From assembly GCA_964016885.1 (NCBI GenBank), contig OZ024741.1, positions 321,718,001 through 321,782,000 of the forward strand: DNA of 64,000 bases, written 5' to 3'. Within the stretch, counting starts at the first letter, position 1. Each line of letters opens with the position of its first letter. A program made the translations under genes and the position numbers. A model generated the notes under the pieces. It was not told the DNA's origin and made no database searches. It saw nothing but the letters and a program-made list of their open reading frames with translations. This document shows, one piece after another, positions 19,135-57,700 of this stretch. The stretch comes from Eledone cirrhosa. Taxonomy: Eukaryota.

Positions 19135-20148
19135 TAATAATATAATCAGTTCCACCAGCATGGTATAGCGCACTTCATCAGGCACTGGATTAGTCCCTTT
19201 CATTTTCCTTAGAAAAGATTTTAATCTCGAAATATCAGGACATATAAATAAATTAAGGTAAAACACCTAACATTTTGTTTCACTTTTTATTCGTCCATTT
19301 CACATTTTTGTAGCTTTCAAACTTAAAATTATATATATATATATTGTTGTACTTGGGGAGGGTCATATTGTTGTAATAATATTGCCAGAAATAATAACAG
19401 AACACACTCACTGTTTGGTTGGTTTTCGCTTCTGTATCTTTTATATCTCCACAGTTAATTCATTCGGTCCTCAATGTTTACCATTGACTGACCAATGGTC
19501 AAAAATATAGATATAATATAGATATAAACACATATATATAGTCTAACAAAGTTCTTTCGTTGCACATCTGCAACATCATCAGTGGCACTATTATGTTCCT
19601 CCTGTTGTATTGTATATCTACGTCATTTTCATTTTTGATATACAATACAACAGGAGGAACATAATAGTGTATATATTACTGGCAGCATACAGTAATACTA
19701 AATGTTAATACAGAATGTTATGAATGTTAATACAGAATGTTATGAATTTTTAAATAATTGTGAATGCATAGTATACTGTTATTTATAGTAGAGTATGCAA
19801 GAGATTGTTGTTACTTTCTCCAATGAAAAAAATATAAAGTATATTGCGAAATATACACATCTAGAGACTTTCAATAATGACCTTTGGTCTTTCACACTCA
19901 CTCAATATATATATATATATATATATATATCAGGGAGTGTGTGTTATGTGTGTACATGTATATGTGTATTTATAGATTTATATATATGTATACATACATG
20001 TTTTCAACTTGTACAAAAAATATTTGACTCATTCACCCTAGGGACTTTATACTGAAGAATTGACCACTAATTGATTTTACATATGTCTTTAACCCATTGA
20101 TATAAAAAAAAGTATTTGGCCAGCAGCTCCTGTGTATGTGTAAATATA

Positions 20149-30575: not shown

Positions 30576-31359
30576 CTAGATGAGGGCGTCGTCTTCTCCT
30601 CCTTTTTGTCTCACATACAGATGACGTTCCTTTTCTCTCTCTATGTACATATCTCACGCTTGGTGCTCCTCCTTTCGGCACTACCATACTATTAGCTGTC
30701 AGAAGTGAAAGTTTCGTCAACCTTCTCAATCGTAAACATCGTTTATTTCCGTATTACCACGACTTCTGACAGCTAATACCATGAACTTAAATGAATTTTC
30801 ACCAACAGTGGAGTTACTTCTGACAGCTAATACCATGAACTATATTTTCATAGTCATGGTTATCAATGTAGAAAACAAGTCATTTTCACCAACAGTGGAG
30901 TTAACTTAAATGAAAATATAGGTGGCCCTTAAAAGGGCCAAATTAGAAAACAAATATATGGTTATCAAATTTTTTTCACCAACCCTATACATGAAATTGA
31001 TAACCATGACTATGAAAATATAAATGATTAAATCCAATTTATTTGATAACCATGACTTGTTTTCTAATTAACTTAAATTTGTTCGATATGTTTTATTAAA
31101 ATAACGCGTGGCAATACGGAAATAAACGATGTTTACGATTGAGAAGGTTGACGAAACTTTCACTTCTGACAGCTAATAGCATGGTAGTGCCCTCTTTCTC
31201 TATATAGATGAGGGCGACGTCAAAACTTTCTCGGAAACACACAGCGTCCCCTTTTCTCTCTCTCTCTATGTACATATCTCTCGCTTGGCTCTCCCCTCTA
31301 TATATAAAGTGAGCGTGACAGCAGGAGGGACGGAGACAGTGTTCTTATTATAATATAGA
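30576..31359 (-). mobile_element. Helitron-like element with 85-bp internal inverted repeats
   Basis: TC 5' end at 31359 and CTAG at 30576; inverted arms at 30677-30761 and 31107-31191. Confidence 0.5.
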
Positions 31360-32190: not shown

Positions 32191-32272
32191 ACTTCCGGTA
32201 TAATTGCGGTTGTGCTGTTTAAGAAAATTTGACTGCGTGACTTCCTTTTTAGTATTGCCTCTCGGTTTAATT
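32191..32272 (+). promoter_or_regulatory. RPL7 promoter: ETS/GABP site, TCT/5'TOP start and non-coding exon 1
   Basis: ACTTCCGGT at 32191-32199, polypyrimidine CTTCCTTTTT at 32241-32250, and a GTAAGT donor at 32273. This is the typical ribosomal-protein promoter layout. Confidence 0.7.
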
Positions 32273-32624
32273 GTAAGTATATATCTTAACTCTATTTTAA
32301 ATCTGTTGTCATCTTTATCTATATAGGTAAAATTTCTTTCTAAACATTTACAAATGCATCCTATATCTTCAATTAATGTTATTGAACAGTTATTATTATA
32401 TATATCTCTTTATAAATTAAAAATTGACCGTTCAAAATTCATATCTGTATTACAACGTGGTGCTCCATGGTTGATTTTATTTCCATTAACACCATCGCCT
32501 AAAACCCGCTTTTGAACAATATTTGTAAATTATTCATGTCTTGATTTTATTTGATTTCTAAATTTTATAGTGTTTACATACTAATTGAATATTTTCTCTT
32601 TTGTTTTTCTATTTTCAGGACAAC

Positions 32625-35600
32625 ATGGTAGAGTAAGTATCTCTATTTTTTTTTTCATCATACGTAACTCTAACATATAATACCAGCTATTAATTTCTCA
32701 GTCTCTCTATCAATATATGCTTATTTTTAACAGCACACACACTTTATGTATTAAACCTTTAAACATATTTTGCCTCCAATCTAAAAAGAAAAAATCATTC
32801 GAAAAAGTGCTATCACTGATGTATTATTGAGAAGACACTTCCTTACACATAACTTTTCATGATAAAACTGGGACCCCTCTATATAAGACTAAAAAATCAT
32901 CCATTGTAGGCCATGTGTAAACTGTAAACATTACTTAATTATTTTTTATTTACGGGAATAATTTATAAAGGGCAATTTTGAAGCTTGTTATTAAATAGAA
33001 ATTCGTGTACAATTACGCGCACATGTTGCTATTAGATGATGGCGAGAAGAAATTCTCAGAATCATAAAGTGAAATGATGTTGGTGTCAATGATGTATATT
33101 CACGAAAATATTTTAATTATTTACCTTATTTGATCATTTAATATGTTTTGACCCACTGCAACCAAATGTCCAAACTGTCTTATTGGATAATATTAACCCG
33201 TATACAAAAGTGGGTTTCCATCACAATATATCTATCTCGAATAAATAAAATGAAAATATCTCGCTCGATTACCAGATTCATTTAATTTAACTCCGTTCAT
33301 ATAATACCTAGAAACACAAACACATATGCCGACCATGACTTTAATGTGTATATATATGGTGAATCGGACGGTATTTTCTTCATTCAAATTATATTGTCAA
33401 TAGTTATTGAAAGTGTCTTCAACGGTAACCACAGTATTTGAATTTGATCATGTGTGCTGAATGGACGCCCAAACAAGATGTATCGGTACTAACAGAATTA
33501 CTGTTTTACTGTTCCCACATGAGGATATACTTCAGTTTGTTTTAATAATTTTTTTTAAAATTAAAAATATAATTTTTACAGTTTATTAATTGCTTTGGTA
33601 ATCCTTATTTTAATATAGACACGTCCGGTAATATCCGCGGGAGCCATAAATAAATGTTTAGGAGAAAACCACTTAATTTTGGTTACAAGAATATATATTT
33701 TTCACTATATTATATCTTGTTTTGTAGTACACATCAATGCATGTGCAATTTGCACATTAGGGTTAAGTTTTCCTAGAAAAATAAACGTTGGAAGTGAGAT
33801 TAGTTGATAGCACGTGATAAAAACCCGAGGAAAAACATTTCTCACTGAATCATCATCATCATCATTTTACGTCCGCTTTTCCCTGCTTGCAAGGGTGGGA
33901 CGGGTCTTATTCAGCACAGCATCTCTCCACTCGTCACGGTCCCTCGTCATCTTCACCGTGAGCTTCAATGATCTGAGGTCTGTTCTCACCACCTCCGCCC
34001 ATGTTTTTCGTGGTCTACCTCTACCACGTCTTCCTTCAACTGGCATTTCCTGGCACTTCTTCACCCATCGGTCATCCTCCATGCGCATCACATGTCCATA
34101 CCACCTCAGTCTCCTCTCCCGTACACTACATTCTATCCCTCTCAGACACAGTTTCTCTCTCAACACATTTATGCTGGGTCGTTCACACACATTTACACTG
34201 CACATCCAACGGAGCATGCTTGCCTCATTTCTCTCCAGCCGTCGTATATCTTCTGCGGTAGCTGCCCATGTCTCACTACCATGCAGCATCGCGCTCCTCA
34301 CACAGGCATCATACAACCGGCCTTTCGTACGCAGGGAGAAACCCTTCTTCGTCAACAGAGGAAGCAGCTCCCTAAACTTCATCCAACCCGTCCTCATTCT
34401 AGATACTATGGCCTCGGAACACCCTCCTCCCATGCTAATCTGATCTCCTAGGTACCGGAAGCTATCCACCACTTCTATAGCGCCCTCTCGCATTTGAAAA
34501 ATGTGTCTATCAGTGCGACTTCTACTGTCTAATTTCCCTGTACATCTACTGCATACATATTTCTCCCTACCTGTTAGTTTGCCTGCTATCCCGCTACATC
34601 TCTTGTGTACCCAGGACCTACATTGTGTGCATTTTATAGAATTTATGCCAGTTCCTTTTCTGCATATCGAACATGGCCATTTCCCTGACGGAATCAGGGT
34701 TTTGTCCTCTTTTCTACTCATCAACACTTTTGTCTTAGCTAGATTTACTCTCAGTCCTCTTGCTTCCAACTGCTGTTTCCATAGCCGGAATTTATTCTCT
34801 AGCTCCTCTACTGATTCTGCCATAAGAGCCAGATCGTCAGCATAGAGAAGTTCCCATGGACAGCCAGTCTTAAACTCCTCTGTTATGGCTTGGAGGACTA
34901 TAATGAACAAGAGCGGGCTGAGGACCGAACCCTGATGTACTCCTACTTGTATCTGGAATTCCTCACTAAACTCCATTCCTACCCTGACTTTACTGAGAGT
35001 ACCTCTGTACAAAGTTTGCACTGTCCTTACAAGCCATTCCTCAACACCCAGCTTCCTTAGGGACCACCAGATGACAGATCGGGGTACCCTATCAAAGGCC
35101 TTCTCTAGGTCAACAAAGGCTAAGTATAGTGGCTTATTCTTCTCTAAGAACCTCTCTTGCATTTGTCTCACCAAGAAGAGGGCATCTGTTGTACTCTTCC
35201 CAGGCACAAAACCAAACTGCATCTCATCTAGTTTGACCCTTTCTCTAATTAGTTGTGCTAAAATCCTTTCATAACCTGATCTATCAGTTTTATACCCCTA
35301 TAATTGCTCCTCTCCAAAGCATCCCCTTTACCTTTGTAGCAATTTATGAGAATACTGCTGCACCAGTCTTTGGGTATGACACCACCATATATAGCCTGAT
35401 TGATGATGCGTGCAACCAGTTTAGTGCCTACGTCCCCTGATGCCTTCAGCATCTCAGCAACTATTCCCGATGGTCCGGCCGCCTTACCATTTTTCATTTC
35501 CCTAATCGCCTCTTGGACCCTATATTCGTCAATCTCAATAGCTGGTCCCTCTGTCGGATCTACCAAGGGTAATTTCTCTCTCTCCCATTCGTTCTCCACA

Positions 35601-38600: not shown

Positions 38601-41600
38601 GGAACTGGGGAATCGACAGGGGTGTTAAATAAATTTAGGAAGAGACTGACTTGCGGTCCGAATTATGACAAGTTAAAATCATTTAGTCGTCTATTTGTAC
38701 GCTTTAGTTACGTACACACATCTACACGTAAATACACAAACAGATATTGACAACAGAACCAAGGAGCTTGTGAAACACTATAGCGATATGTGTTGCATCC
38801 CATTAGGGTTTACCGGCTACGTAGCCTATTCGTAAATTTGCCGAATATATATTTTCCACTGTAATATATCTTGTTTTGGTCTATTTCAACTAAATTGTAT
38901 ATCTCAAAATGTGTATGGGTAGTTTTATGAGAAACAGCTGGGTTGGTCAGTACATGTGTATAGGGGAATGTGTACCAATATATGTAATTAACTATTGATT
39001 ACTAATATATTTAATATGCATTAACCACAAAGAATACAGTAAATGTAAAAATTATAAGACAAGGGTATGGACAAGGATATTAAATAAATAAATATATAAT
39101 ATAAAACATGAAAAATAGGGATAAAAAAAGTAAGTTGGTGTCCTAGATGTCTAATCATCATAATCTGTCAGTCCTGCCATTACTCAAGCAGGGCCCTTGA
39201 CTTCCAGATAAACTAGGGATTCTTCATATCCTGCGCTCTACCAACATTAGGAAGTTTTCATGTCTGGTATTGTTGAAGAGTTTTGTTTAGATTTACTACA
39301 GTTGAATGTCCTTCTAACTACTGACACAAAGACAAACCCCTTTGTCATGGTTTCGACAGCAAGTGCCTTACTTGCTGATAACCACATTACAGGGTGTACT
39401 GTGTGCATTTATCGCGGAACCAACACTAGAGGTTGTCATTGATTCAACTAAAACGGTGAGGTGAGGTATTGCTAAACGTGGAGAGATTTGACAGTATGGT
39501 GGGTGGGACTCCAACTGAGAGGTAGTTTGTATATAAATGTTTGTATTTTCAAAACAAATGTTCATTTAAATTTGGTTTGAAAGCTGATGCATTTAATGTT
39601 AACTTTCTAAATTTACTTTAAAATGTATATTTTCTCTTCTTTTTTTTTTTTAGGACAAAGAAAGAGTAAGTATTTTTATCATCTTTGTATTTTCTGCCTT
39701 TATCTAAATTGTTCATAATAGATCCTTTAGATCAATCTTCCTAAGAGAAGGAATATAAAATTCTGGGGAAGGAATCAAAATTGGGAAAGAATAGTGTACA
39801 ATGTGTATCAATGAAATACCAATATATCTGAATTATGTGAGGTCATGTATTAATAGCTCAATAAAAAAAAAAAAGTACAATCTTGATCTCCTTTGGGACC
39901 ATACAATTATTGAGGTTTGAAAAGCTTGATCATATTAATATGGTGTTTGGGTGAAAAATTACTAGATGATAATTCAAAATGTGGAGGAATGGGAAAGTTA
40001 TTGAGGAAACCTGGAATTGCTCGATCTTGGTCACTGAGAACCAATCCTGGTCTAGGTAGACACCTCTCCCCAGTGACTAGTACCAAAGTTTTAGTGGTTC
40101 ATTTTATGATCTGTGTTGCATAATACAATTGAAAGTAAATTTATGGACTACCCGAAAAAAGGTTCTCATTGCTTTAGATTAATTATAAATTATTTTATAC
40201 AATTTTGTGAAAGACTTGCTCAAATATTCAGCAACACGTTTTATATATATATATTTTCTCTTAATTTTTCAGCACTCCAAAGAAAACTGGAGAGTGAGTA
40301 TTTGTTTTATCTCATTAACCCTTTTATTACCTTATTTCTAATGAACGATCGGGGTGGGGGTGTGTGTGTGATTAAAGAAACCTACAATTGCAGGGAGGGA
40401 AATGTGACTTGGGTCACTGAGAACCGTTGGGTTTTATATGCAATACTATATAACCTGGTTTAGGTGAACTGCCAGTGACTGGTACCAAAATTTTGGAGGT
40501 CCTATTTTATGTCCTGTTTTGTTGTGTAATACAATTGAAAGTAAATTTATAACCACCTGAAAAAAGGTATCATGGCTTTAGATTAATTACAAATTACCAT
40601 ATATACTTATATATAAACTGAGAAATGTGACAAAAAAAAAATCTATGGTAAACGAGGTCAATATTTTGCTGATTTTCACCTTCAATTCTATGTAAATAAG
40701 GTGCTAAAATATCAAGTGATTATTTACCTATTGTACAGAATATGTATATCAAGTTCACTATAAAGCTTTAATTGGAGGTGAAATATATTTTTTCTATGGC
40801 TTTTGATGATTTGAAGGAATTAGCTGTCAGAAATTGTTTCTCGAGCTTTGGGCCACTCACCTAGCTTGAAGGTGAATATTACATCAGTTTCACTTTAAAG
40901 GTGAAATTTGTCTTATTGCTTTTGATGTATTGAATGAATACAGCCTTCAAAACGGTTGGAAATTCTTTTGTTAGTTAACTTATTAACCTATTATTAACCT
41001 ATTGGAGCAAGACAAGTGTAATTGTACCTGTACGATGTTAAGCCATTAGCATTTACATTATTCTATATTTACTAATGTATTTTCACAAACACTTTATTCC
41101 ACAAAATTATCTCACAATATCAAAGCTATGAGATTTTGATATTGATTTTGAGAACAATACCTAAGATAAGTATGAGCTGCTGGTTATGGTTGGTTTGCAA
41201 AGAAAGAGGTGAGAGAATTCTGGCAGGATATGGCCAGTTTAAATGCTAAAGGGTTAAATGGTTTCCAAGTTTTTTAAGACACACATTTAATTTGATGTCT
41301 ATACTAAATAGATATTTGTTACATTCATGAGATGGTGCTATTGTAGTCTGCTAAATAAAAAAAAAAGCAAAGTACTCCCAGCATGTGAGTGGTTGGAAGT
41401 AAACAAAAATTTGGGAAACTCATTGAAACTTTATCAAATTGAGGATGAAATGGTGAAACAAAAACTATATTCTAAATAACACTTAAACATTTTGAATAAA
41501 ACTTCATAAATATATTCTCCATTCATGAGAATTTCAAAACTGATCCTTCTAAACGTGTTAAGCTGTCTTGGGTTTAAATGTTTGAGTATATACAGTAACT

Positions 41601-44600
41601 TAGAATACAATCTTGTAAAAGACTTTTTGAAATGTTCAGTAACATGTTTATATTTTATTAATTTTTCAGCACTCCAAAGAAAACTGGAGAGTGAGTATTT
41701 GTTTATTGACGTTTTTATTGACCCTTTTATTACTTTATTTCTAATGAAAGACGGAGGGAGGGGTGATTAAGGTAACCTACAATTGCAGGGAGAGGAATGT
41801 GACCTGGGTCACTGAGAACCGTTGGGTTTTATATGCGATATTATATAACCTGGTTTGACTGGTACCAGTTTTAGTGGTCGCCTATTTTATGTCCTGTTTT
41901 GTTGTGTAATACAATTGAAAGTAAATTTATAACCACCTGAAAAAAGGTATCATGGCTTTAGATTAATTACAAATTGCCATATATACTTATATATAAGCTG
42001 AGAAATGTGTGACAAAAAAAAAAATCTATGGTAAACGAGATCAATATTTTGCTGATTTTCACCTTCAATTCTATGTAAATAAGGTGCTAAAATATCAAGT
42101 GATTATTTACCTATTGTACAGAATATGTATATCAAGTTCACTATAAAGCTTTAATTGGAGGTGAAATAAATTTTTTCTATGGTTTTTGATGATTTGAAGG
42201 AATTAGCTGTCAGAAATTGTTACTCAGTTAACAATGAGCTTTGGGTCACTCACCGTGTTTGGAGGTGAATTATACTCAAGAGGGTTATCAATTTTATTTG
42301 TTTGTAATTACTTTAATTTTCTGTGCAGACTTGAAATTTTGTCAGATGTTTAAATAACTATAATTTACAATTATATATTTTTACCTAATTTTTTTTGTTA
42401 AATTTGACTTTTATGGTCAGGTGAAATTAATTAACAGGTGTAAAAGTAATAACTTTATGGATAAACACAAAAATTTAAACTTTATCTGCCTTACTTGTTA
42501 GATTTGTTGCAAAAAAATCCAATAATGATCTAGATGCTGATTTCCATCAATTCTAGCAGTTTTCCGAACAGGTGAATTAATTAAAAATGCAGGTGTAATC
42601 AGTACAAGGTTTTAGTCTTTCTCTACATTCCAGGCAAATATTTTCATTGAAAAAAATGTATAAAACCTTTTCACCAGTCAAAATAATATTGGCAATGTAC
42701 TCTTACACAATGTACGGTGTAAAATTACGTAACAGAATGTTCCCAATATATAAGTTCATTAACAGGTGTGATGCAGGTGTGACACAGGTGAATGCAGGTG
42801 TTTTTGTATATGTGTTCTAATATATTTTTAAAATATTGTTTTCAATATTGTCAGACAATATTTCTATCGTGCCCAAAGCACCCTTTACATAATGGCACTT
42901 TGCAAAAGGAACACATAAATAGGGTTTGGATTGCGTAACCTTTAAGTTTTTCTCTTTTGCAAAGAGCACAATCGGCAAACCTTCCTCCTACCATCAATTC
43001 TCTCCACTTTGTGAAAATCAATATTTCCTTTGTGGACCACTGCTAATTTTGATTTTTTCCCAGCTTTGTGTTTGCGAGAAGTATATCCTCCACGTAGCTG
43101 GGATGCAATGTCCACGCGAAACTTCATATGACAGTAGTCCTTTGGTGGTGGCGGATCCTTGTGGCTTTTAGTAAATACAATAAAAGAATTCACAATGGTT
43201 AAATTCAGTAAAAACCACAAGATGTATCTCCACCATTTGTTTCTTGGGTAATAAGCACAGTACTGGTCAGATTTGTCAACCCCACCCATATATTTATTGT
43301 AGGAGAGGTTAACTAAAGGTCTACCCTCAGCCCCAACACCTGATTGTTGGTTAGAACTCAGGAACAAAATTTGTCTTTGAACACTGTGGCTAACATGTTC
43401 TCTTTTTGCATTTGGAGAATGTCCCCTCTGTTTTTCAGTTTCGCAACTTTTATTTCTTGGGGTAGTCCTTTCCGATTGCTCATTATTGTGCCGCAGGTGT
43501 ATGTATTTACAAGGGCAAGATCCTCTGCTAAAAGCACCGAAGAAAAAAACGGTCAAAATAAATGTCTATGTTGAAAGTGGAAGGGTTGAGTCAGCGACCA
43601 CACAACATCGTAACACAACCCATGTTTTCTCTCTCTGTTATGTTTTTTTCCTGTGTAAACATCAAAGTTTACACAGTATCCTGTGTCCGATTCACACAGT
43701 TTCCACACTTTGATGCCCCATTTGGTGGGTTTAGCTGGCATATACTGTCTGAAATGAACCCTACCCTTATACCCAATCATAGCTTCATCAACACTAAGAT
43801 TTTTTCCAGGTATATACACACTTTAAAATTTTTCTAACATTTCAATTAATGGTCGTACTTTGTACAGTGGGTCGTAATTTGATTCATTTCTACCAGGGGC
43901 ATTTGAAGTATCAACCAGATGCAAATACTGGTTTAATTTGATGAATCTCGTTTTTGCCATAATACTAGATATATAAGGGTTACCAAACCTTATATCAGTA
44001 CTCCAATAATTCCAGTCGTGGAAATTGTTTAATACCAAACATAATATTTATGGTAAAAAACGCTTTCATTTCGGCAGAATCTGTCGGACGCCATAACAGA
44101 TCGGGTTTTCCGATATTAGAAATCTGTTGTTGTGCATAGCGATTTGTATCTTCTGCCACAACTTCGAAGAAAGTTTGTGGTAAAAATAAAAAAAAATAAT
44201 CCAGTGCTTTAGCATCGGGTGGTAATGTGTGTTGTGGTCCAGTATTTTCAGTAAAATCCGAAAGATGTATCGGTGTGGTTTCTTTCAACCACGTTGGTGT
44301 CAGTTATATCTTCGCTTTCACTTTCAAAGTGACTATCATCATCATCATCAGATATATCAGAAATAAATATATCTGATTCGTTCGAAGATAAATCACAAGA
44401 TATTATCTTCTGTTTCTTTTTGATCTCGAATGTCGTCGGATGTAAAACCTTCAAATTCGTTGTCGCTACTTTCGGAAGCCATGTTATACTTTCAACGTTA
44501 AAAACACGTGTTATCGCCAGTTCTTTGACTATACTAAGAGTTAATTTTCGCGCGTAAGGGCTTTATCTCGCAGTAATCTCGAATTGATGAGATTTCAATG

Positions 44601-47600
44601 ATGTCGATGTTTATTTTTAGGAGATCTCCGTGTAGTATTAAATGTCGGTTTGAATAAATGAAAGGAGGCATAATCTTGTCGGTTTGAATGCTAAAGGGTT
44701 AAAGGTGAAATTTGTCTTTCCTATTGCTTTTGATGTATTGAGAATGAATACAGCCTTCAAAACGGTTGGAAATTGTTTTTTTAGTTACTTGGGGAACCTA
44801 TTAGAGCAAGACAAGTGTAATTGTACCTGTACAATGTTAAGCCATTAGCATTTACATTATTCTATATTTACTAATGTATTTTCACAATAAACACTTTATT
44901 CCACAAAATTTATCTCACACAATATCAAAGCTATGAGATTTTGATATTGATTTTGAGAACAATACCTAAAATAAGTATGAGCTCTGGTTATGGTTGGTTT
45001 GCAAAGAAAGAGGTGAGAGAATTCTGGCAGGATATGGCCAGTTTAAATGCTAAAGGGTTAAATGGTTTCCAAATTTTTTAAGGCATACATTTAATTTGAT
45101 GTCTATACTAAATAGATATTTGTTACATTCATGAGATGGTGCTATTGTAGTCTGCTAAATAAAAAAAAAAAAGCAAAGTACTCCCAGCATGTGAGTGGTT
45201 GGAAGTAAACAAAAATTTGGGAAACTCATTGAAATTTTATCAAATTGAGGATGAAATGGTGAAAAAATCATTACATTGTGAAACAAAAACTATATTCTAA
45301 ATAACGTAAACATTTTGAATATTAAAACTTCATAAATATATTCTCCATTCATGAGAATTTCAAAACTGCGCCTTCTAAATGTGTTAAGCTGTCTTGGCTT
45401 ATACATTGGGTTTAAATGTTTGAGTATATACAGTAACTTAGAATACAATCTTGTAAAAGACTTTTTGAAATGTTCAGTAACATGTTTATATTTTATTAAT
45501 TTTTCAGCACTCCAAAGAAAACTGGCGAGTGAGTATTTGTTTATTGACGTTTTTATTAACCCTTTTATTACCTTATTTCTAATGAAAGACTGGGGTGGGG
45601 TGGGGGAACCTACAATTGCAGGGAGGGGAGGAATCGCACAAGAAGAATGAGACCTGGGTCACTGAGAACTATTGGGTTTTATATACGATACTATACAACC
45701 TGTAATACAATTGAAAGTAAATTTATAACCATCTGAAAAAAAGGTATCATGGCTTTAGATTAATTACAAATTGCCATATATACTCAGATATAAGCTGGGA
45801 AATATGTGACAAAAAAAAAAATCTATGGTAAACGAGATCAATATTTTGCTGATTTTCACCTTCAATTCTATGTAAATAATAAGGTGCTAAAATATCAAGT
45901 GATTATTTACCTATTGTACAGAATATGTATATCACATTCACTATAAAGCTTGCATTGGAGGTGAAATATATTTTGTCTAAGGTTTTTGATGATTTGAAGG
46001 AATTAGCTGTCAGAAATTGTTTCTCCATTAACAATGAGCTTTGGGCCACTCACCAAGTTTGGAGATGAATATTACATCAGTTTCAATTTAACCCTTTAGT
46101 GTTCAAACCGGCTGCAATTATTTCCTCTTCATTTATTCAATCCAGCCGATAACAACCATACTAAAATATTTTTCTAAAAATAAACAATAGCGCCATCAAA
46201 ATCTCGTCAATTCGAGATTACTGCGAGATTTAGACCCTTACCACGAAATTAACATAGTGAAACAACACGTTTGTTTAACGTTGAAAGTAGAACAGATTTT
46301 TTTTGTGTATCAACATTGGGTTTAAATTTTGAGTATATACAGTAACTTAGAATACAATCTTGTAAAAGACTTTTTGAAATGTTCAGTAACATATGTTTAT
46401 GTTTTTTTTTTATTTTTCAGCACTCCAAAGAAAACTGGGGCGTGAGTATTTGTTTTATCTTGTGTTTATTGAAGTTCTTTAACCATATTTCTAATGAAGC
46501 CGCTGGGGGAAGAATTGGGGAAACCTGGAATTTTAAAGGAAGGAATGAAGACCACTGCTTTAGATTATTACACAACCTGGTTTAGGTAAACCCCCAGTGA
46601 CCGGTATGAAAGTTCTAGTGGTCCATTGTTAGTTTTGTCCTACTGTGTCACATAATACAACTGAAAGTAAATTATAATTTAATGACCACTTTTGGACTGT
46701 GTTCCACAGGACTTGTGATATATTCTGCATGTGTATGGGATTGATGGACAGCTTCTTGTTGCCTTGAAATCTCTATATGAATGCCCTAGTATTTGTTTTG
46801 AGATGGTGCTGAGTTGAAAACATTCAATTTGAGTGTCAGATTCCGCCAATGTGTATACTGTCACCTCTCCTATTCATAATGTTCATTGACGTGTGTGCAA
46901 CCAGGATGGAAGTGGTATCAAGACCGACAGGTGTAGAATCAGTCTGCTGGAATTTGCAAGCGTTACTATTTAACTCACCAGATGTGATCTCGGACATGCA
47001 CTCAAGAAGCATTTGGAGAAGTTTCAACTATTTTGGAGCCATTTTGATGAGGCAGGGGGCTAAAGTGAATGCACAGATTCCAGTAATGCGCTAGCTTCAG
47101 CATTCCGTCAGAAGGGAGGTAGGTGTAAAAGCCCAGCTCCCTATCTTCAAGTTGGTGTTAGTGTCACTTATCTATGGTCATGAATCTTGTGTAATGACTA
47201 AAAGAATACAAGAGCCGGAATTGGGTACCTCTGAAGGATCTTTGGAGTAATGTTATTCAATAGTGCATAAGCTTGGAGATCTAAGAGCTGCTACTCCGAA
47301 TTGAGATCTCCCAGCTCCAGACATGTAGGCAGAATACCTAAGGAAAGAAGCGCTGGGAAAAATCAACTGGCAGGAGACCCAGGGCTAGACTTGAATATAT
47401 CTAGCTGGATCAACTTGTGACAGTTGCTCCAAATGACCCCCCCCCCCCCCCCCCCCCAGGAATAAGTAGGTGACAAAAATGGATTACCTAAAAAAAAATG
47501 TCTCATTACTTTAGATTAATTACAAATTGTTTTATACAATTTTGTGAAAGACTTGTTGAAATATTCAGTCACATGTTATTTATATATATATATTTTTGAA

Positions 47601-50600
47601 TTTTTCAGTGCTCCAAAGAAAACTGGAGAGTGAGTATTTGTTTTATCTCATTTCTATTGAAGTTTTTTAACACTTTATTGGAAACAATCCAAAATTTGGA
47701 GTGATTTAGTAATATAACTAACTTTCTGATTAAGTTGTTTGGATTTTAATGAAGGTTCTTAAATAAATTTATGAACAGTTTTAAAATAAACTTAGTTGTG
47801 CTACTGTGTTGCATAATACAATTGAAAGTAAATTTATAATTTATGGATAAATTTATATAATCTTGTGAAAGAATTATTGAAATATTCAGCAACGTATGTT
47901 ATATATGTATATTTTTTCTTAATTTTTCAGCACTCCAAAGAAAACTGGAGAGTGAGTATTTGTTTTATCTCATGTTTATTGATTTTTTTAACCCTTTTAT
48001 ATTATCATATTTCTAATGAAAGATTGGGAGAGGAATTGAGACCTACAAGTGTAAGGAGAGGAATGTGATTTATGAATAATGTAACCCGGGTCACTGGGAA
48101 CCACTGCTTTAGATCTGATACTATATAACTTGGTTTAGGTGAACCACCAGTGACTAGTTTTAGTGGTCTCCAAAATTTGGAGGAATTTAGTAATAATATA
48201 ACTAGCTCGTGTTTAGAGCATAACTTAACAAACAATTCTATTGCTGAACCAAGGACAGTTTCAAGTGGTTTGTTATTAAATGGGTTAAATAAAACTTCAT
48301 TTGAAAGTACAATATTTATATATAGGAAATATTAACCTATAATTTCTCTTGTATACCTTTTATTTAATTAATGATTCGCACAGCACTCCAGTGTGTGATG
48401 AGATCATGCATATTGTAGGAATAAGAAAGCATCGTTAGTCATCATTTTATGCCAGTTTTCTGTGCTGGCATTGGTTAGATGGGTCATCACAGTGAGAGAA
48501 CAAGTTAGATAACTATCATGCTCATACATTTCATATTTTGGCATGGTTCTATGACTGGATGCCATTTCTAATGCTAACCACTTCTGTACTAGGTGATATT
48601 TTATTATGGCACTAGCACTACCATTTACAGAGTGTCCTGACTGCATTTTATCATGTCATGTCCTCAGCAGGCCTGAAGAGTCGTCCTCTCTGTATTATAT
48701 TGTCTCCATTGCCTGTTACTTTACAAAGGGTACAGATTATATTTTAATATTACTGATTTATGATTATAAAAATATGTCTACATCATGTTCATGTATGAGT
48801 AAATGCAAAGTGTCCCTGGAAGTGGAAAAAATAACATGGTGTTAACAATATAAAGTATTTTAAATAAATGTTTCCCTCCAGTATGTAATAATTACTATGT
48901 TAATATTCCAATTAATGTTATATTATGAAACTAATGAAAATATCTTTTTTCTTTTCTAGGAAAGTTGTAAAGAAAGTTGTAAAGTAAGTATATTTGAAAT
49001 CTTTATAACACATTCTTTTAAAATCTTAGAATATTTTAATATAGTTTGAGATAATACCATTCATCATAATTTTAGAAAGAATTCTTTATTATAGAATATT
49101 TCTGGATACCATTAGTTATAAAAGCAGCTTTATGCTTAGTTCTGAGACCAAATTGTTAATGAAATTGTGTAGGCAGAAACTGTATGGAGGTTCATCAGTA
49201 ACTGGAATTCAGAGGTGCAACTTGGTTAGACACTGTCATGCTGGTTCCAAGTGTGTATGTCTGGAATTCTAAGGCATTTTGCTCAAATTTACATTATTAC
49301 AGTGAAGTCATTAAGTTTTAATGTGATGCAGCCATAATATTGTTTTGTGCTTCTCAATATCTTGCTAATTTGGTTTCATGTGGTACAGGACGTTAAATTA
49401 AAAGATTTCAGTCTTTTTTGTTCACTTTAATATTTTAAACATTTATTTCAACTGTAAGATGTCGATGATTAAACAATATTTCATGTTCTTTCAGGAAACA
49501 AGTACCGAAGAAGCCGTGAGTATAAATATCTATAATGAAACTAGTGCAGTGTATTGGAAGTATCAATGTTTTTCTTAACTGATTGTTTACTTCATGAAGT
49601 TTTTTTTAGTATTTGCACACCAGTGATAGATGTTAGGTTTATTTACGTTATGATGTTTCATTAAATATTTATATGTAAGTCAGTGGTCCAGCATGGAACG
49701 AAAGAATACATAATTTGAAGCAATTTTCATTCTAAACTCTGCGGCAACACAGCTACTGTTTTGATGTCATACACACGTGTTGCTCTGCAGTAAATTTGAT
49801 TTTAAAATAATTTTGCTCAAAGCATTGAGTGTGCCATTTAAAGGTTGGGAACAATTAGAGTTTGTTTGGTATGAAGCTATCATAACAGCTCTATTTACGT
49901 ATCTATTTGGCACTCATTGAAGGAGCATCTTAGTAAATCGTCTTTTACTTTTTCACTTGAGAACACCTAATCCATTATTTTCTTAAAAATTATACTTTCA
50001 AATCAATTGATTTTTCTCTATTTCAATATCGCTCTTGTATAATTAAGTGGTAAAATCTTAAGTTATAGTTATTATAGGTTAGTGTACCATTTAGTAGAAT
50101 TACAAATATTAGCACAGACAACACTTCTGCACATGTTCTTCACAAAATTACCTGATCCCAACCCTCAAAGTCTTTGTTTATCAACTTTATTGTCCATTGT
50201 TGATAGTTTCAATAGATTCTTAAATTCCAACTGATCTGTGTGGTCAGTTCCAACATGTGTATTAAAGTGTCTTTACATATAATATAATGCTGCAGTGACT
50301 TCATCAAGGAAGGGTCTGTATTCGAACTGCTTGCTTGGTGGATAAACTTGCACAACCCACAGACGTATCTTTCAGCCTCAGCTTCAAGAGGCAAATCCTC
50401 CCTCCCAATGGTGTCCAGTCCATATCACATTCTGACAGTTGGGTGCTTGTGAGTATCTCCACTCCAGTCATTTCTGGTGCTATACAGTGTACAAGTATAC
50501 AGTGCCAGGGCCACAGAGCTTTGTTCAGGAAACCCTGACTATATCCAGCCAGTAGCACCTAGCCTCCATTAGTCCTCTTTACCTGCAAGGGTTGTGATGT

Positions 50601-53600
50601 TCCAGATTCCAATTGTCATGGTTTGTTCTCTTTAGGCTCTGGATCTGCCAGTTTTTACTGGTACATTCAAAATCCTGCAAAGACTAGGCTTTTTAGAGGC
50701 TCTTGACTTGCCTTGTCATATCTACATCACTGGGTTGTGAGAGGTTTCTTGGGAGCTACAGGTATTATCCATTGCTCCATCTCCCCTAGTAGTTGGTCTG
50801 GGGTTACTTATTCGTCTGGCAGCTACCCACTTATATTGTAACTAACCATCATATCTGGTGGTCGTATCACATTCACCTGTGAATTGTCTAGCAGAACAGC
50901 TTTGCCGAGAAGGATAGTTAGTTCTCCAGTCATCCACAGATGATTTCAAATCATAATATTTTAACTTCTCATGTGATATATTTTCAATTTTTCAGGGTTG
51001 TAAAGAAAACTGCAGAGTAAGTATTATTTCGTTATTATTAAGTGTTGCTGTATTTTATCGAAAATGTGTTTTAACCCTTTAGTGTTCAAATCGTCCGCAA
51101 TTATTTCCCCTTCATTTGTTCAAACTGCCTGAAACTGGCCGATAACATCCAGACTAAAATATTGTTAAAAAAATAAACAATACCATCATCAAAATCTCGT
51201 CAATTCGAGATTATTGCGAGATTAGGCCCTTACTGCGAAAATTAACACTTAAAACGTGTTTTTTTAACGTTGAAAGTAGAAAAGATTTTTTGTGTATCAC
51301 ATGGCTTGTGAAAGTAGCGATACCGACTTTGAAGGTTTTACACACGACAGCATTCAGAATAAACAAGAAACACGATAATATTAGTGATTTATCTTCAAAT
51401 GAATCTGATGTTTATATTTCTGAAATTTCGTCTGACGATGATTGTTTTGAAAGTGAAAACGGAGATCTCCAGGACGCCATTTAAAATATTACAGCAACGT
51501 GGTTGAAAAATACCACACCAATATATGTTCCCGATTTTATTCAAAATACGGTCCGCAACACACATTAGCTCCCGATGCTAAAGCACTGGATTATTTCTTT
51601 TTGCTTTTACCGCAAACTTTCTCTGAAGTTGTGGCAGAAGAGATTAATTGATATGCCCAACAACAGATTTCAAATCGAGGAAAACCCGATCTGTTTGGCG
51701 ACCGACTGTTGCTGCGGAAATGCAAACCTTTTTTACCATAAATATATTCGGTATAAAACAATTTCCAAGACTGGAATTACTGGAACACTGATATAAGGGT
51801 TAGTGATCCTTATATATCAAGTATTATGCCAAAAAACAACATATTTCAAAACAATCATCGTCGGACGAAATTTCTGAAATATAAACATCAGATTCATTTG
51901 AAGATAAATCACTATAATATTATCGTTTGTTTCTTGTTTATTCTGAATGTCGCCATGTGTAAAACCTTCAAAGTTGGTATCGCTACTTTCATAAGCCATG
52001 TTGATAAAAAGAAAAAATTGTTGTACTTTCAAAGTTAAAAAAACACTTGTTGTTTTAAGTTGTTTCACTATATTAAGTGTTAATTTTCGCAGTAAGGGCC
52101 TAATCTCGAATTGACGAGATTTTGATGATGGTTTGTTTATTTTTAGAACGATTTTTTAGTGTGGGTGTTATCGGGTGGTTTGAACAAATGAAGGGGAAAT
52201 AATTTCGGGCGGTTTGAACACTAAAGGGTTAAACATCTGCTGACAAAATTTCAAGACTGCACATAGAAAATTACAATTGATAACCCTCTTGAGTACGATT
52301 AACTGAAAATAATGTGAACAGATAAACATGACATCTGACAAATTAATGTGAATGCTAAAGGGTTAATCAAATTATTTAAAACTTTTTGATACCTAAAACT
52401 GACTTTGATTCTATGTTACAAAGCTGATATTTTAACAACTAAAGGTTCTTACATAAATCAAAGTTTGAGTTATTGTTTCAAAACTACTCTAATTGGAAGC
52501 AAATTTAGTGATATTTAGATTTTGTTTCAATCTCATCATATATGGCTTAGTTGGTATGTTAAACTGTTTTAACCTTTTAGCATTTACATTACTCTGTAAT
52601 TTACTATTGTATTTTCACAGTACACACTTACCTCACATAATATTGAATCTACAAGATTTTGATATTTACTTAACATAAGTATGAGCAGCCAGTTATGGTT
52701 GGTTTGAACTGAAAGAAGTGAGAGAATTCTGGCCAGATATGGTTGGTTTAAATGCTGAAGGGTTAAAGTATCTTCTTTTCATTTCTGAAGCCAGCGGAGC
52801 ATTGAGTTGCTGAGCATGCTTTATTTCATGTTGCTTTTCATAATAGGACTGGCCCCTTATCATGAAAAAGAAAAACACCCAGAGAAACCTTTTATGAGAT
52901 GTAATCTCATAGGTCAGCTGAACCTGCATGGGTTTAGGACTTCAAAGATTTGTATACAAGATTTTCAATAGAATTGAGTATGTATAAAACATGCATTTTA
53001 GGAAAATAACATAGTTTGGTATTATGAACAAAGCTAGATTCAGTGTATTGACAACTCATTTGGTCGGATGCCATGCTTTGGCGCATGGAGATACGGGCTT
53101 TGCCTTTCATCCTTATAGGTCGATAAAATAAAGTACCAGTAATGTACTGGGTAATTGCTGGCCTTCTGCCAAAAGTAGAAACAATTATTTTAACTGAAAT
53201 TTAAGAGATAAATATATATTGGTAATAATTTCACAATTACTGTATTTCATATTTACAAAACAATAGATTTGGTGGTGCTTCAGTAGTAGATATTGCATTT
53301 TCAGTTATAAAATATCTAATTAACATTTCTTTACTTTTTCAGGAAGAAGACTGTTAAGAAAGCGTAAGTAGTTTTTAAATTAAAATAGTACTATTAAAAA
53401 TAGATATGGAAAGTATTTTTATGTTTACATTAGAATTTAATGTTTTCAATGTAATATTGGAAGGTGGAATATTAAGATAATTTTTAAAACAAGTAATGAA
53501 TATATATATATATATACAAGAAATTATGCTTAGATAAGCAGTATTATATATATATGTAAAGGCATGTGGTTTAGTGGTTAAAGAGTTGATTTGCAACTGT

Positions 53601-54218
53601 GAGGTTGCGAATTCAATTCTCAGACTGGGTGATGCATTGTCCTTGAGCAAGACTCTTTATTTCATGTTCTTTCTGTCAGAAGATAGTATCAGCAAAGGAA
53701 ACATTGTTTCCTTGGTTCGATTTGACGGGGCCCACCCCACTCAGTAAGCAAATGAAGTCTGGGATCTTGTTGATCTAAGCATATTTTTTTCTATATATAT
53801 TCAATTATCTATATAAATAATTTATTTATATACATGTGTATATGGAAGTGCATGGGTTATTGATTAGGGTGTTTGGCTCACAATTGTAAGGCGGTGAATT
53901 CAATTCCCAGCTATGCAACACACTTTATTTCACATTGTTCCGGTTCATTCAGTTGTATCTGTATTGTCACACTGAATCTGAGAATTACATTAGTTCATGA
54001 GCACAGCTGTTCAAACATCTAAAGCATTTGTTAGAACTGATAGGATTATACGTGTGTGTGTGTATATATATGTTTGTAAAAGGTTAACAAATAACAACAC
54101 AATTGGTACACTATATAGAAGGGATATATTCGGTTAACGCTTGATATAACAGGAAGAGGGTCTTAACGTTTCGGACGCTAGTCCTTCATCAGAAGAAAGA
54201 ATGAGAAATAAGATAGAT

Positions 54219-54249
<31 letters not shown>

Positions 54250-54505
54250 AGCCAACATATATACAGGTTATTTACATTAGTTGGACATGGGTACAAAAGA
54301 TATTAGCAATATGTCATAAGCGTTTAAAAAAAGCATGTGTAACTAGTCTTGCTCATGCTGTATGTGTAGAAAGACAAACTACCTCTCTCTCTATATATAT
54401 ATATTCACACATTCATTTTCTTGCAATATAGCTGACATTTTAGCAAAAAAAGTTGATTTTTTTTGCTAAGCTTCTCTAAAATTAATAAATGAATGTACTT
54501 TTATT

Positions 54506-54538
<33 letters not shown>

Positions 54539-54631
54539 GGTGTCCCAAAAGAATGTATACACAGTTTGATTACCTATGTAGGCAATATTTATTAGAATGC
54601 TGTTGAAGTGTGTATACACTTTGAGACGCCC

Positions 54632-54703
<72 letters not shown>

Positions 54704-57700
54704 AAATGATTTTAATTGAAGTATATATTTTTCAATGTTAGTATTTTATTTTTTCAGGCCTCCCAAGAAGATTGTAGAGTGAGTATTATCCTGCCTTCAT
54801 ATATGGTGAAATAATCTTTTTATCAATATTGAATTTCATTATATCTGAACATAATATACCTTTCCATACAAAGAGTATGGAAAGGATATCTTGCTACAAT
54901 CAGTTGCAGTTATGAATATCACTAAAATACAATATTTAGTTTATATATTGCTGCTTACAATGCACAGGGATATAGATATAAATTATTCATGTTGTATTGT
55001 AAAAGATTTTATTTGAAATGTTGATAAATATAGTTTTTTTAATTTTTCAGGGCAGTCAAGAAGACCGAAAAGTGAGTATTATCTTTTCTTCATATTGAGG
55101 CATAAATATAACAATAACTGATTATATTTTATTACTATTGATATTCTCTCTCTCTAATGTCTGTGTCTGTTATAAAGAATAATAATCATTTTACATCTGC
55201 TTTCCATGCTGGCATGTGTTGGATGGATTGTCACACTCTGAGACAAGGCAAATATCTAAGCACCCTCATCTCACTCATGTTACATAATTTGTATGGCTTC
55301 TATAACTGGATCCCATTCTTAATGCCAACACTATAGCCTCCGGTCTCCACAAATATATTGTTTAATCAATATTAGTGTGATTTATTTGCATTGTTTCATT
55401 TCATACTTTGCATTATATGAGATCAATGAAACATCTACTTCCATTAGAAAGGCACACCATTGCAATGTATTTTTAACAATATATTTGCTGGCTGCAGGGG
55501 GATGAATCTGTTTTAGGTGCTTGGAGGGATGATCTAATTTTTTTATCTTTTGCGAAATATTTTCTCATCAAATTAACAGTGCATAGTATATATGTATTAT
55601 GCCGTTAATTATGGTATCTATGAGGAGGTGCTGAAAAGTTTCTGGCTTTGGGTAAAAGAAAATATAGGAGAATCAGTTATGATTTTATTCAACATATTCC
55701 CCATACATTCACACACTTATTGCAGCAGTCCTACCTCCCCTATAAAGATAAACAACTCAATCCTTTTGTGGTACCCTTAAAGCCAGGAACTTTTCAGCAC
55801 CCTCTTGTATATTATCTTTATAAATTTTTCAATATTTAATTTTTAATTTTCAGGACTGTAAAGAAAACTGTTGTGTGAGTATTTTGTTTTATCTTATATT
55901 CTAAAGTTAAGCCTAATCAAACATTCCACCCTGTCCTTTTTAGGGGCTGTGTTTAAGAAGACATTATCCAATATCTTTTTTCATTAAGGTGGTAGAAATA
56001 GTTTAAATACATTGGTGGTTATTACTAGCAGTTGAGGTGATCACAAAAAGGCTTTCTCTCGTGTTCATATAGAGTGGAATGAAAAAAATCAGTTCTAAAT
56101 TCTATCATATATACGTGAATATAAGCCAACCCCTATTTTATGTCTAAGAAATGGGCAAAAGTATTAGCTGAGACAGCTAATCAACATATGTTCAGATAGC
56201 ATAGTTTTGAAATTCTTATCTTAAATTTGGTATTTGTGCCAACCCTATGATCATGGATCTTGGGTAATGACTGAAAGAATATGATTGCGTATATAATTGG
56301 CTGAAATGGAGTTAACTTGAAGATCAGGGAGCTGCTACTTCTCCAAATTGAGAGATCACAGCTTTATGGGCATGTAGTTAAAATGTCTCAGGAAAGAATT
56401 GCTGGACAGATTTTACAGGCAAAACCAACTGGCACGTGACCCACGGGTACACCCAAGCAAAGTGGTTGGATAACATCCATGTGCTTGGCTGGTCTCGCTT
56501 TGGGATTCAGCTAGATCAATTGGAAACTATTACTTATGACAGCCCCTGCTGGAAGGAGTGTCTGAGGACTCTGCTCCCATGACCATCTCGGGAATAAGTG
56601 GCTGAAGAAGTGGAATATACTTACATTTTCATATTTAAAATGTTGTAAGTGTTGTATAGCTTTTGTTTAAGAACTCCATTATGTGATTATTTTTTTGCCA
56701 ATTTCCTACTTGTTTAAAGGCCATATTCATTCGAAACAAAAAACAGGAAATGCATATTTCATGTTGAAAGTGAAGCCGGTGTAACTTCAAAGTGAAAATA
56801 TTTTACCACCTGATTTCAGCAGGATTTGAAGTTAGTGTAAATCAACAAAATATTGATTTCGAGTATAGGCTGACCCCATTTTTTTTTTTTTTTTTCTTTT
56901 ACCTTCCCATATTTCTTGGCTTGTATATGAGTATATACAGTAAGGCTTTTAGCATTTACATTACTCTATATTTACTATTGTATTTTCATAGTAAACACTT
57001 TATTTCTCATAATATTGAATCTGTGATTTAAAAAAATTATTTTGAGAACAATGTCTTAACACAAGTATGAGTGGTTGGTTTGAACAGAAAGGTGAGAGAA
57101 TTCTGGCCGGTTTAAATGGTAAAGGGTTAAAATCAAGCTTATATATAGCCTATATTTCTAAATCATATTTCTTTCAAGTCAATGATTTAAGTCCCAAAAT
57201 AATATTTTTTTTTGTTTTTAGTTAACTTCTTGACCATTCTAATGTTATTAGTAACACACATACAATTGCTGCAAACTGGTTTATGTTGCCTGTCTTGTTC
57301 CTTTCAAGTGTGCCCCTACATGACCCAACCTTTTGATCACACTTTAATTTCTACTTCTACTGACATTAGAAATATTAGTATCTATTTAGTATTATATTAA
57401 AACTGAAATATTCTCTCAGTAATTGCTGCAGATGATTACTAATTATGTCTTAATTAAAAATATTAACATGAATATTTATTTTTAATTTTTCAGGACTGGA
57501 AAGATATCTATGAAAGAGTAAGTATTTGTTTTATCTTGTTGACAAATGAAATAGGAGGATAATAATGGTAGTGGGTGATTATATATAATGTTGAAATAAT
57601 GTATGTAATACTTTATATAGCATGATATTCATTGTTGATTTAAGTTTGTTACAATTTGTAAATTCCATTAAAATATTCTTTTTTAGATTCCATCATTCTC

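Follow-up and report, generated by a model that had tools for sequence, protein, structure and literature searches.

Tandemly duplicated exon-plus-intron units in the RPL7/uL30 gene of Eledone cirrhosa and their likely part in a lysine-rich N-terminal tail

The RPL7/uL30 locus

The window analysed here is a stretch of 64,000 nucleotides from the Eledone cirrhosa genome, and the microexon array that it holds is part of the octopod RPL7/uL30 gene (Table 1), for which the earlier note on this DNA gave no name. The gene model is open and 348 amino acids (aa) long, contains the Pfam domains PF08079 (Ribosomal_L30_N, E 4e-17) and PF00327 (Ribosomal_L30, E 2e-13), and has a core that is 92% identical to Octopus RPL7 (90-92% over the Octopus and Argonauta records) and that clusters with four octopod RPL7 proteins in a tree with support of 100/99. 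One genomic copy of RPL7/uL30 was found (6 of 6 candidates scored), and no processed RPL7 pseudogenes recording older exon counts were recovered in the genome search. The start site of the non-coding first exon is our assumption, taken from the usual pattern of ribosomal-protein genes.

Ahead of the core lie 15 microexons, all of them (15/15) at most 27 nt long, a multiple of 3, equal in phase and bounded by canonical splice sites. Together these symmetric phase-2 exons would code for the greater part of a 113-residue N-terminal tail that is 35% lysine with a net charge of +28, the first 107 residues of the model comprising K36, T18, V14, P10 and only A5. Since all of them are in phase 2 and have lengths divisible by 3, the frame would survive the gain, loss or skipping of any exon. 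The 5'-most microexon (39654) is absent from the RNA-like contigs, in the placement of which a repeat at the exon edge is skipped. The structure model (AlphaFold) had a mean pLDDT of 44.8, low in the core too, and was too poor for use.

Table 1. Features of the RPL7/uL30 gene in the window, with positions counted from its first letter
Feature	Position	Strand	Basis or remark
Probable non-coding first exon	32241..32272	+	Pyrimidine run (TOP/TCT-like) at start, donor site
Start-codon exon, 14 nt, phase-2 end	32619..32632	+	N-terminus like octopod RPL7 proteins; splice joint predicted
12-nt symmetric microexon, 5'-most, diverged from cluster	39654..39665	+	Sequence
Old-type intron copy 5' of E1	40046..40272	+	Homologous to E4-E5 intron, blastn 72-85%
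Unit U1: E1 (40273-40293) and intron	40273..41669	+	piggyBac-type MITE at 41038-41258
Unit U2: E2 (41670-41690) and intron	41670..45507	+	4.6% from U1
Broken piggyBac-type transposon in U2	42268..44703	-	PF13843 in 4/4 element ORF pieces scanned
Unit U3: E3 (45508-45528) and shortened intron	45508..46420	+	Self-comparison, alignment
End of a different piggyBac-like element in U3	46087..46312	+	Paralogous TTAA, orientation opposite to U2 element
E4: young acceptor flank, old donor flank	46421..46441	+	Flanks spanned by X1 contig
E5: APKK variant	47609..47629	+	Spanned by X1 contig
E6: same sequence as E1, E2	47931..47951	+	Exon of such sequence spliced to 48960 in X4
Eight diverged symmetric microexons, 21 or 24 nt (starts 48960, 49495, 50996, 53343, 54758, 55051, 55854, 57494)	48960..57517	+	All serially joined in X4
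RPL7/uL30 core exons, five	57737-57839, 59998-60164, 60847-60984, 62072-62181, 63039-stop (to 63247)	+	Model, Pfam

Paralogous exon-plus-intron units

Six of the microexons (E1-E6) are 21-nt xPKKTG exons, each bounded by AG and GT, and their acceptor-plus-exon pattern had six matches in the 3.0-Gb genome, all within the window, against none for the reversed control. Judged by sequence comparison, the six are real paralogues: paralogy of their flanking introns reached z values of 6-56 upstream and 2-69 downstream relative to shuffles, and their splice flanks agree with those of E6 at 13-15 of 15 and 16-20 of 20 letters. The earlier note had placed these exons in duplicated exon-plus-intron units, the middle one with a piggyBac inside, and both points stand. 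It had also called the long units near-identical; all three are present, but they are 4.6-8.6% apart and separated by many indels, aligned columns agreeing at 91-95%. The differences amount to 62/1339 aligned sites between U1 and U2, 56/648 between U1 and U3 and 50/646 between U2 and U3, the U3 counts including about 16 misaligned columns at a transposon junction.

Around E4, E5 and E6 lie shorter, older copies of the intron, as the note had described, and another is found upstream of E1, where 40046-40272 is 85% identical to 47479-47608. Among the other nine microexons we found only scattered, weaker flank pairs, chiefly at 54758, 55051 and 55854. That downstream introns share little beyond their splice flanks is right for most of them, which have no similarity outside those flanks, but not for 54758 and 55051, an older duplicate pair with 73% identity over 132 nt. 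Strong matches to the exon-flanking intron were confined to the window (40 of 300 candidates scored); a dispersed-repeat origin of the exon flanks was rejected, matches elsewhere being mostly satellite-like and about 40 nt long.

At one end the U2 element retains its terminal repeat and TTAA; the opposite end is lost together with some 15 nt of host sequence. The element is 90-96% identical to a copy at 58010-59484. The element end in U3 matches elements at 51070 and 52233 at 79-81% and the U2 element end at 72%; beyond it some 0.7 kb has been deleted. Runs X5 and X6, from other organisms, gave chiefly transposon matches.

Age of the units and order of duplication

Contigs of a DNA run (X1) differed from the window at 11 of 5901 letters (0.19%). 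Because U1-U3 are far more divergent than this and two of them carry their own piggyBac-type insertions, as the note had argued, they are not assembly duplicates. It is extremely improbable that the assembly set haplotypes in tandem: no contig bridging U1-U3 is among those listed and X1 is possibly the assembly's own sample, but there are three long copies rather than two, many indels separate them, U2 and U3 host different transposons, and X1 contigs cross the E4 and E5 flanks with 0-2 differing letters, one of them carrying a U3-specific 3-nt insertion. Unit divergence is some 25-45 times the X1 figure, and the duplications therefore probably predate present-day alleles; the idea of an array caught expanding was not borne out.

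A smooth age gradient, young at the 5' side and old at the 3' side, was tested three ways and rejected, and what survives of it is a coarse division into two blocks. The youngest copies, E2 and E3, with no differences in the 85 nt upstream, are interior; the acceptor flank of E1 is 13% and 18% from E5 and E6, against 22-23% from E2-E4; and 39654 has diverged as far as the 3' microexons. The flanks of the eight downstream microexons did not become less cluster-like with distance (Spearman +0.48, p 0.23, for the upstream flank; +0.76, p 0.03, for the downstream flank, a sign opposite to the gradient), and the 3'-most microexon, 57494, has the most E6-like flanks (14/15 and 18/20), above those of the exons adjoining the cluster (10-11/15 and 10-13/20). 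Polarised growth, with new copies arising at the 5' end, ageing toward the 3' end and still polymorphic, is accordingly very unlikely: the six similar copies all lie 5' of eight diverged ones and the most similar repeats of O. sinensis are also near the N-terminus, but the clearest 7-residue run of O. bimaculoides is at the core-proximal end, and the observations above on interior copies, E1, 39654, 57494 and divergence beyond allele level all run against it.

Copying of whole exon-plus-intron units in tandem gave rise to the six exons, with unequal crossing-over among copies already present as the likely route. Short units would first have been duplicated to give E1, E4, E5 and E6 (13-23% acceptor-flank divergence). 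Later the E1 and E4 modules may have recombined, doubling the long intron that separates them and producing chimeric E2 and E3, E4-like on the acceptor side and E1-like on the donor side; piggyBac-type elements would then have inserted separately in U2 and U3. Distances computed on the acceptor side conflict with those on the donor side, as expected of chimeras, and trees of the flanks point the same way, the acceptor-side fork having support of only 81/81. In the three-way site pattern the odd copy out was U1 at 18 sites, U2 at 11 and U3 at 25, with no clean switch point in U2, so the order of crossovers is unproven.

Splicing of the microexons

Run X4 was taken as RNA solely from its GT..AG joints. 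Its contigs join all eight downstream microexons serially at such joints (8/8, depth about 2400-2900), and one contig joins the end of one cluster exon to the whole of a second and then to 48960, a tandem arrangement that rules out strict mutual exclusion of the cluster exons. E3, E4 and E5 were not individually seen in the X4 contigs, where identical short exons are not resolvable and are placed at the first fitting position, which makes E1-E5 indistinguishable. Contig breaks in X4 were considered as signs of at least 3 tandem copies or of skipping and discarded, the 8+21+1 letters corresponding to contig overlap; a break at 54758 was likewise discarded as skipping, being explained by a retained-intron contig.

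An unlikely alternative to a lengthened tail is that E2-E4 are silent or used singly and that duplication added little protein length. No RNA contig was placed on 41670, 45508 or 46421, and the introns of E2-E4 bear transposon insertions and deletions; against this stand the AG/GT ends and near-identical splice flanks kept by all six exons, the tandem splicing of two of them and the first-fit placement of identical exons.

Comparison with other RPL7 tails

The octopod records compared were XP_029640698.1 and its isoforms, XP_052826945.1, CAI9728784.1, Argonauta GAB1603021.1 and PDB 9EHO chain F, the last a 343-aa Octopus sequence. Octopus RPL7/uL30 resembles the Eledone protein in its orthologous core, its lysine-rich N-terminal tail and isoforms differing by blocks of 7-8 residues; compared as proteins, the Octopus and Argonauta forms differ in lacking the six-copy xPKKTG cluster and in the sequence and length of the tail, and Octopus tails contain 7-residue repeats of their own, placed elsewhere. 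Tails are 46-108 aa long in six other cephalopod or cephalopod-like records and 8-14 aa in 10/10 non-cephalopod molluscs checked (snails and bivalves). A lineage-specific expansion of the tail, which the note had raised for the copy number, is thus supported by these sequences.

Among the papers listed on cephalopod or RPL7 extensions, microexons and exon duplication there was no core ribosomal protein with a tail built from microexons; there was no match for coleoid microexons with alternative splicing and none for uL30 with ES7. The main text of the octopus ribosome preprint (PMC13321053), searched by term, mentions neither uL30, RPL7 nor extensions, and PMC9932298 has no uL30 passage.

Function and significance of the tail

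Tandem duplication of exon-plus-intron units in RPL7 likely adds seven-residue modules to a tolerant lysine-rich tail. On the 60S surface the lengthened tail is predicted to act as an RNA-binding arm that is flexible and tolerates changes in length; its basic residues would bind rRNA or other polyanions electrostatically, with selection probably loose and acting on composition and frame rather than on exact length. Four changes were counted in the four older copies of the exon, against 8.1 expected from the acceptor flank (P 0.09) and 15.3 from the donor flank (P 0.0007), significance being reached solely with the noisier donor-side alignment.

It is rather unlikely that the tail is instead a regulated module, its length and charge tuned by tissue-specific skipping and TPKK phosphorylation and its expansion selected, with either ribosome specialisation or an H1-like function outside the ribosome as the outcome. 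O. sinensis RefSeq isoforms do differ by tail blocks of 7, 8 and 14 residues (5 distinct sequences, 322-343 aa), but these isoforms are predictions. S/T-P-x-K, the CDK2 consensus (PMC5217639, in the portion available), occurs five times in the Eledone tail against once in O. sinensis, stick-insect RPL7 (P0107) has four such repeats independently, and the exons appear more conserved than their flanks. Against regulation, no skipping joint is among the best-supported X4 joints listed, the break at 54758 has the explanation given above, and octopod tails vary widely in sequence and length, which fits weak constraint. A bolder version, which we also think unlikely, is that in coleoids a core 60S protein acquired a polybasic arm, evolvable and tunable by splicing, made of modules of one repeat per exon, each lineage re-amplifying a different set and CDK-type TPKK sites being multiplied five-fold here. 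If so, tissue-specific microexon inclusion and phosphorylation could set ribosome surface charge, a route to specialised cephalopod ribosomes beside the octopus rRNA break.

On the favoured reading of modules added to a tolerant tail, the locus would be an internally dated record of a universally conserved ribosomal protein gaining a long lineage-specific tail, running from short old duplications through newer interior ones to transposon scars. It is directly testable, octopus ribosomes now having cryo-EM and translation assays (PMC13321053, in the portion available).

The duplication mechanism is already known; what makes the case notable is the gene that hosts it and a tail found across cephalopods, rather than any gradient. 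Exons within repeat regions are also tandemly duplicated in titin PEVK and among the P exons of avian troponin T; there too frame-preserving exon copies extend a low-complexity segment, whereas here the host is a core ribosomal protein. In mammalian RPL7 the N-terminal repeats duplicate the beginning of the core helix and are not known to be separate microexons. Repeat number at the RPL7 N-terminus varies (a mouse-sized chain of 270 aa against 248 aa); a PDB search for mammalian RPL7 repeats returned nothing. Drosophila RpL22 and RpL23a likewise have basic lineage-specific extensions on 60S proteins, histone-H1-like at the N-terminus and largely of unknown function (PMC3074143, in the portion available), but the proteins are different, and the Eledone tail is Lys/Thr/Val/Pro-rich with single-repeat microexons that duplicate with their introns. 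Set beside the Lys/Ala/Pro-rich make-up and S/TPKK motifs of histone-H1-like extensions, the Eledone tail has K36, P10 and only A5 in the 107 residues counted, and five motifs. Schistosoma MEGs share runs of very short exons, mostly of 3n nt, with long introns and transposons nearby, but are secreted multigene families built almost wholly of microexons (PMC10526429, in the portion available), whereas RPL7 is a single housekeeping gene with a charged N-terminus, no signal peptide and a five-exon conserved core.

Gene model

The splice-site scan found 15 short exons on the + strand from 39654 to 57517: twelve of 21 nt, two of 24 nt and a single one of 12 nt, with phase 2-2 and AG/GT ends in 15 of 15. 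Together with a start exon and five larger 3' exons, they form a single open frame of 348 residues, in which the larger exons (the core) match the Ribosomal_L30_N and Ribosomal_L30 domains. The closest homologues are RPL7 proteins of Octopus bimaculoides, O. sinensis and Argonauta (96-97% identity on the last exon, 90-92% across the core), the core joins octopod RPL7 proteins in one starred clade of the tree, and oyster RPL7, searched against the species' own genome, gave four matches, only to these exons (6/6 candidates scored). Because of the frame, domains, homologues, core clade and own-genome search, the gene is octopod RPL7/uL30. A tail of 113 residues (35% Lys, net charge +28) is predicted at the N-terminus, and the microexons would supply the greater part of it.

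Exons of the RPL7 gene and the long duplicated units (window positions)
Feature	Position	Strand	Description
Start exon	32619	+	14 nt
E1	40273	+	xPKKTG exon
E2	41670	+	xPKKTG exon
E3	45508	+	xPKKTG exon
E4	46421	+	xPKKTG exon
E5	47609	+	xPKKTG exon
E6	47931	+	xPKKTG exon
U1	40273-41669		unit headed by E1
U2	41670-45507		unit headed by E2
U3	45508-46420		unit headed by E3
Five larger exons	57737-63247	+	core

Duplicated units

The xPKKTG exon pattern is absent from the rest of the genome outside the cluster E1-E6 (genome search). E1, E2 and E6 are identical; E3 is one base off, and E4 and E5 two bases each. As the earlier note had claimed, these exons sit in duplicated exon-plus-intron units: U1-U3 are alignable across the exon and the intron 3' of it, and for most pairs of E1-E6 the flanks are much more alike than dinucleotide shuffles (z 6-56 upstream, 2-69 downstream). 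With transposons cut out, the units differ at 62/1339 sites (U1/U2), 56/648 (U1/U3) and 50/646 (U2/U3), besides many indels, and among the 40 of 300 candidates scored, strong matches to the exon-adjoining intron are confined to the window. The further claim that downstream introns share little held for most pairs, flank similarity among the other nine microexons being at chance level against the same shuffles; the exceptions are an older duplicate pair, 54758/55051 (73% across 132 nt), and the upstream flanks of 55051, which resembles those of E2-E4 (z 6-8), and of 55854, which resembles those of E1 and 54758 (z 4-5).

As a check on whether the long units are a haplotype duplication in the assembly, they were set against the eight longest of the listed contigs from X1, a DNA-like run: these contigs differ from the window at 11/5901 letters (0.19%), and the units are about 25-45 times more divergent from one another. 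E4 and E5 with their flanks are spanned by X1 contigs carrying 0-2 other letters. On the side of an artefact, none of the X1 contigs listed bridges U1-U3, and X1 may be the sample used for the assembly itself. Against it, U2 carries a broken piggyBac-type element (PF13843, the piggyBac transposase family), and U3 has one end of another element, oppositely oriented and with a deletion after it; these unit-specific insertions argue against assembly duplication, as had been proposed. Haplotype duplication does not account for three such copies.

Both elements, each missing one end and adjacent host DNA, lie at a TTAA paralogous to 40895 in U1 (44700 in U2, 46088 in U3). The U1 intron contains 17 TTAA sites, and the shared site is possibly a target-site hotspot, a coincidence of about 1 in 17 by chance.

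Order of the copies

The upstream flanks of E2 and E3 show 0/85 differences, and both are 7% from E4; that of E1 is 22-23% from E2-E4, but 13% from E5 and 18% from E6. Downstream flanks group differently, E1-E3 being 11-12% apart and 29-44% from E4-E6. An old-type intron copy is also present upstream of E1. The earlier note's gradient from young 5' to old 3' copies does not stand: the youngest copies, E2/E3, are interior, the 5'-most microexon (39654) has no flank similarity to the cluster, and the eight downstream exons do not become less like the cluster the farther they lie from it (upstream flanks rho +0.48, p 0.23; downstream flanks rho +0.76, p 0.03), the last microexon (57494) having splice flanks closest to E6. 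The pattern is one of tiers, with the newest copies nested within an older cluster; the original observation was real but partly misread.

The whole duplication mechanism, as we infer it, would have begun with an older round of short units giving E1, E4, E5 and E6, of which the 322-nt E5-E6 spacing may be a remnant. Next, the E1 and E4 modules may have undergone a misaligned exchange that duplicated the long intron between them; such an exchange would create an exon with the E4 acceptor side and the E1 donor side, which matches what E2 and E3 show. The first indel of U2 is also present in U3, the last 85 nt of U2 are shared by U1, and private sites are fewest in U2 (11 vs 18 in U1 and 25 in U3). 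This would fit a second unequal exchange, but a three-way site comparison of U1-U3 found no clean switch point in U2, and the order is unproven. Transposon insertions into the units would have come last.

Splicing and constraint

Run X4, which bears no RNA label, was taken as RNA-like from contigs joined at GT..AG; they join 48960, 49495, 50996, 53343, 54758, 55051, 55854, 57494 and 57737 at depths of about 2400-2900. The first contig opens with the final 8 letters of one cluster exon and continues with a whole exon of E1/E2/E6 sequence joined to 48960; this tandem splicing of two cluster exons shows that the copies are not mutually exclusive. No X4 contig was placed on E2, E3 or E4, placement being ambiguous among identical 21-nt exons. 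One partly spliced precursor contig (54758-55351) has the upstream intron removed and the intron after 54758 retained. Across the four older exon copies there are 4 changes, where their two flanks predict 8.1 (P 0.09) or 15.3 (P 0.0007), moderate evidence of constraint.

Tails in other species and possible function

Measured up to the same core anchor in every species, the tail has 108 residues in the O. sinensis X1 isoform, 101 in O. vulgaris, 91 in O. bimaculoides (partial), 46 in Argonauta, 60 and 106 in two records sister to octopods, 8-14 in 10/10 non-cephalopod molluscs and 10-11 in three other lophotrochozoans. None of the other compared species' tails has the six-copy cluster; each Octopus tail carries its own 7-residue runs, and the five distinct isoform sequences of O. 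sinensis differ by 7-, 8- and 14-residue blocks. Those tails are probably microexon-coded as well. Of 182 proteins considered, 121 contain both a start Met and the anchor; their median tail is 16, and 15 tails reach at least 45, including those of a stick insect (four TPKK repeats), a whitefly and further records. Basic N-terminal tails occur in P0107 (the stick insect) and in P0100, P0158 and P0159 (the whitefly and two further records); since long tails are found in stick insect, whitefly and other records, basic RPL7 tails recur independently.

The tail would be a flexible, basic, length-tolerant arm on the 60S surface, binding rRNA or other polyanions, and symmetric exons would make copy gains nearly free. 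Alternatively, it may be regulated by skipping and CDK-type phosphorylation, in favour of which there are five TPKK sites vs one in O. sinensis; the structure prediction was too poor to bear on function.

Basic lineage-specific extensions like this tail are known on Drosophila RpL22 and RpL23a, according to passages of PMC3074143, and microexon runs like this array in Schistosoma MEGs, according to passages of PMC10526429. The Octopus tail sequence is already present in RefSeq and PDB 9EHO; a term search of the main text of the octopus ribosome preprint (PMC13321053) returned no uL30, RPL7, extension or N-termin, and the literature searches turned up no account of an RPL7 tail built from microexons. 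The array is a variation on kinds already known.

Transposons and repeats

The RPL7 introns (41038-59484) carry nine or more piggyBac-type elements or MITEs that end in TTAA. Those at 51070-52234 form an inverted pair, and a 1.47-kb copy (58010-59484) matches the U2 element at 90-96%. The intron 3' of the start exon contains a minus-strand LINE (33850-36931) whose long open frames of 557 and 476 aa look endonuclease- and RT-like by eye, and a second copy lies at 20148-22426 (89-93%). About 1 kb upstream of the first RPL7 exon are foldback-like nested inverted repeats (30677-31191; 85 bp at 98%, 27 bp at 100%). Further upstream are a non-LTR-retrotransposon-like element on the minus strand (11089-13823), recognised by eye only, with RT-like frames and GC-rich (50-60%) against AT-rich surroundings, and a near-perfect palindrome of 372 bp (6685-7056, 99.5%).
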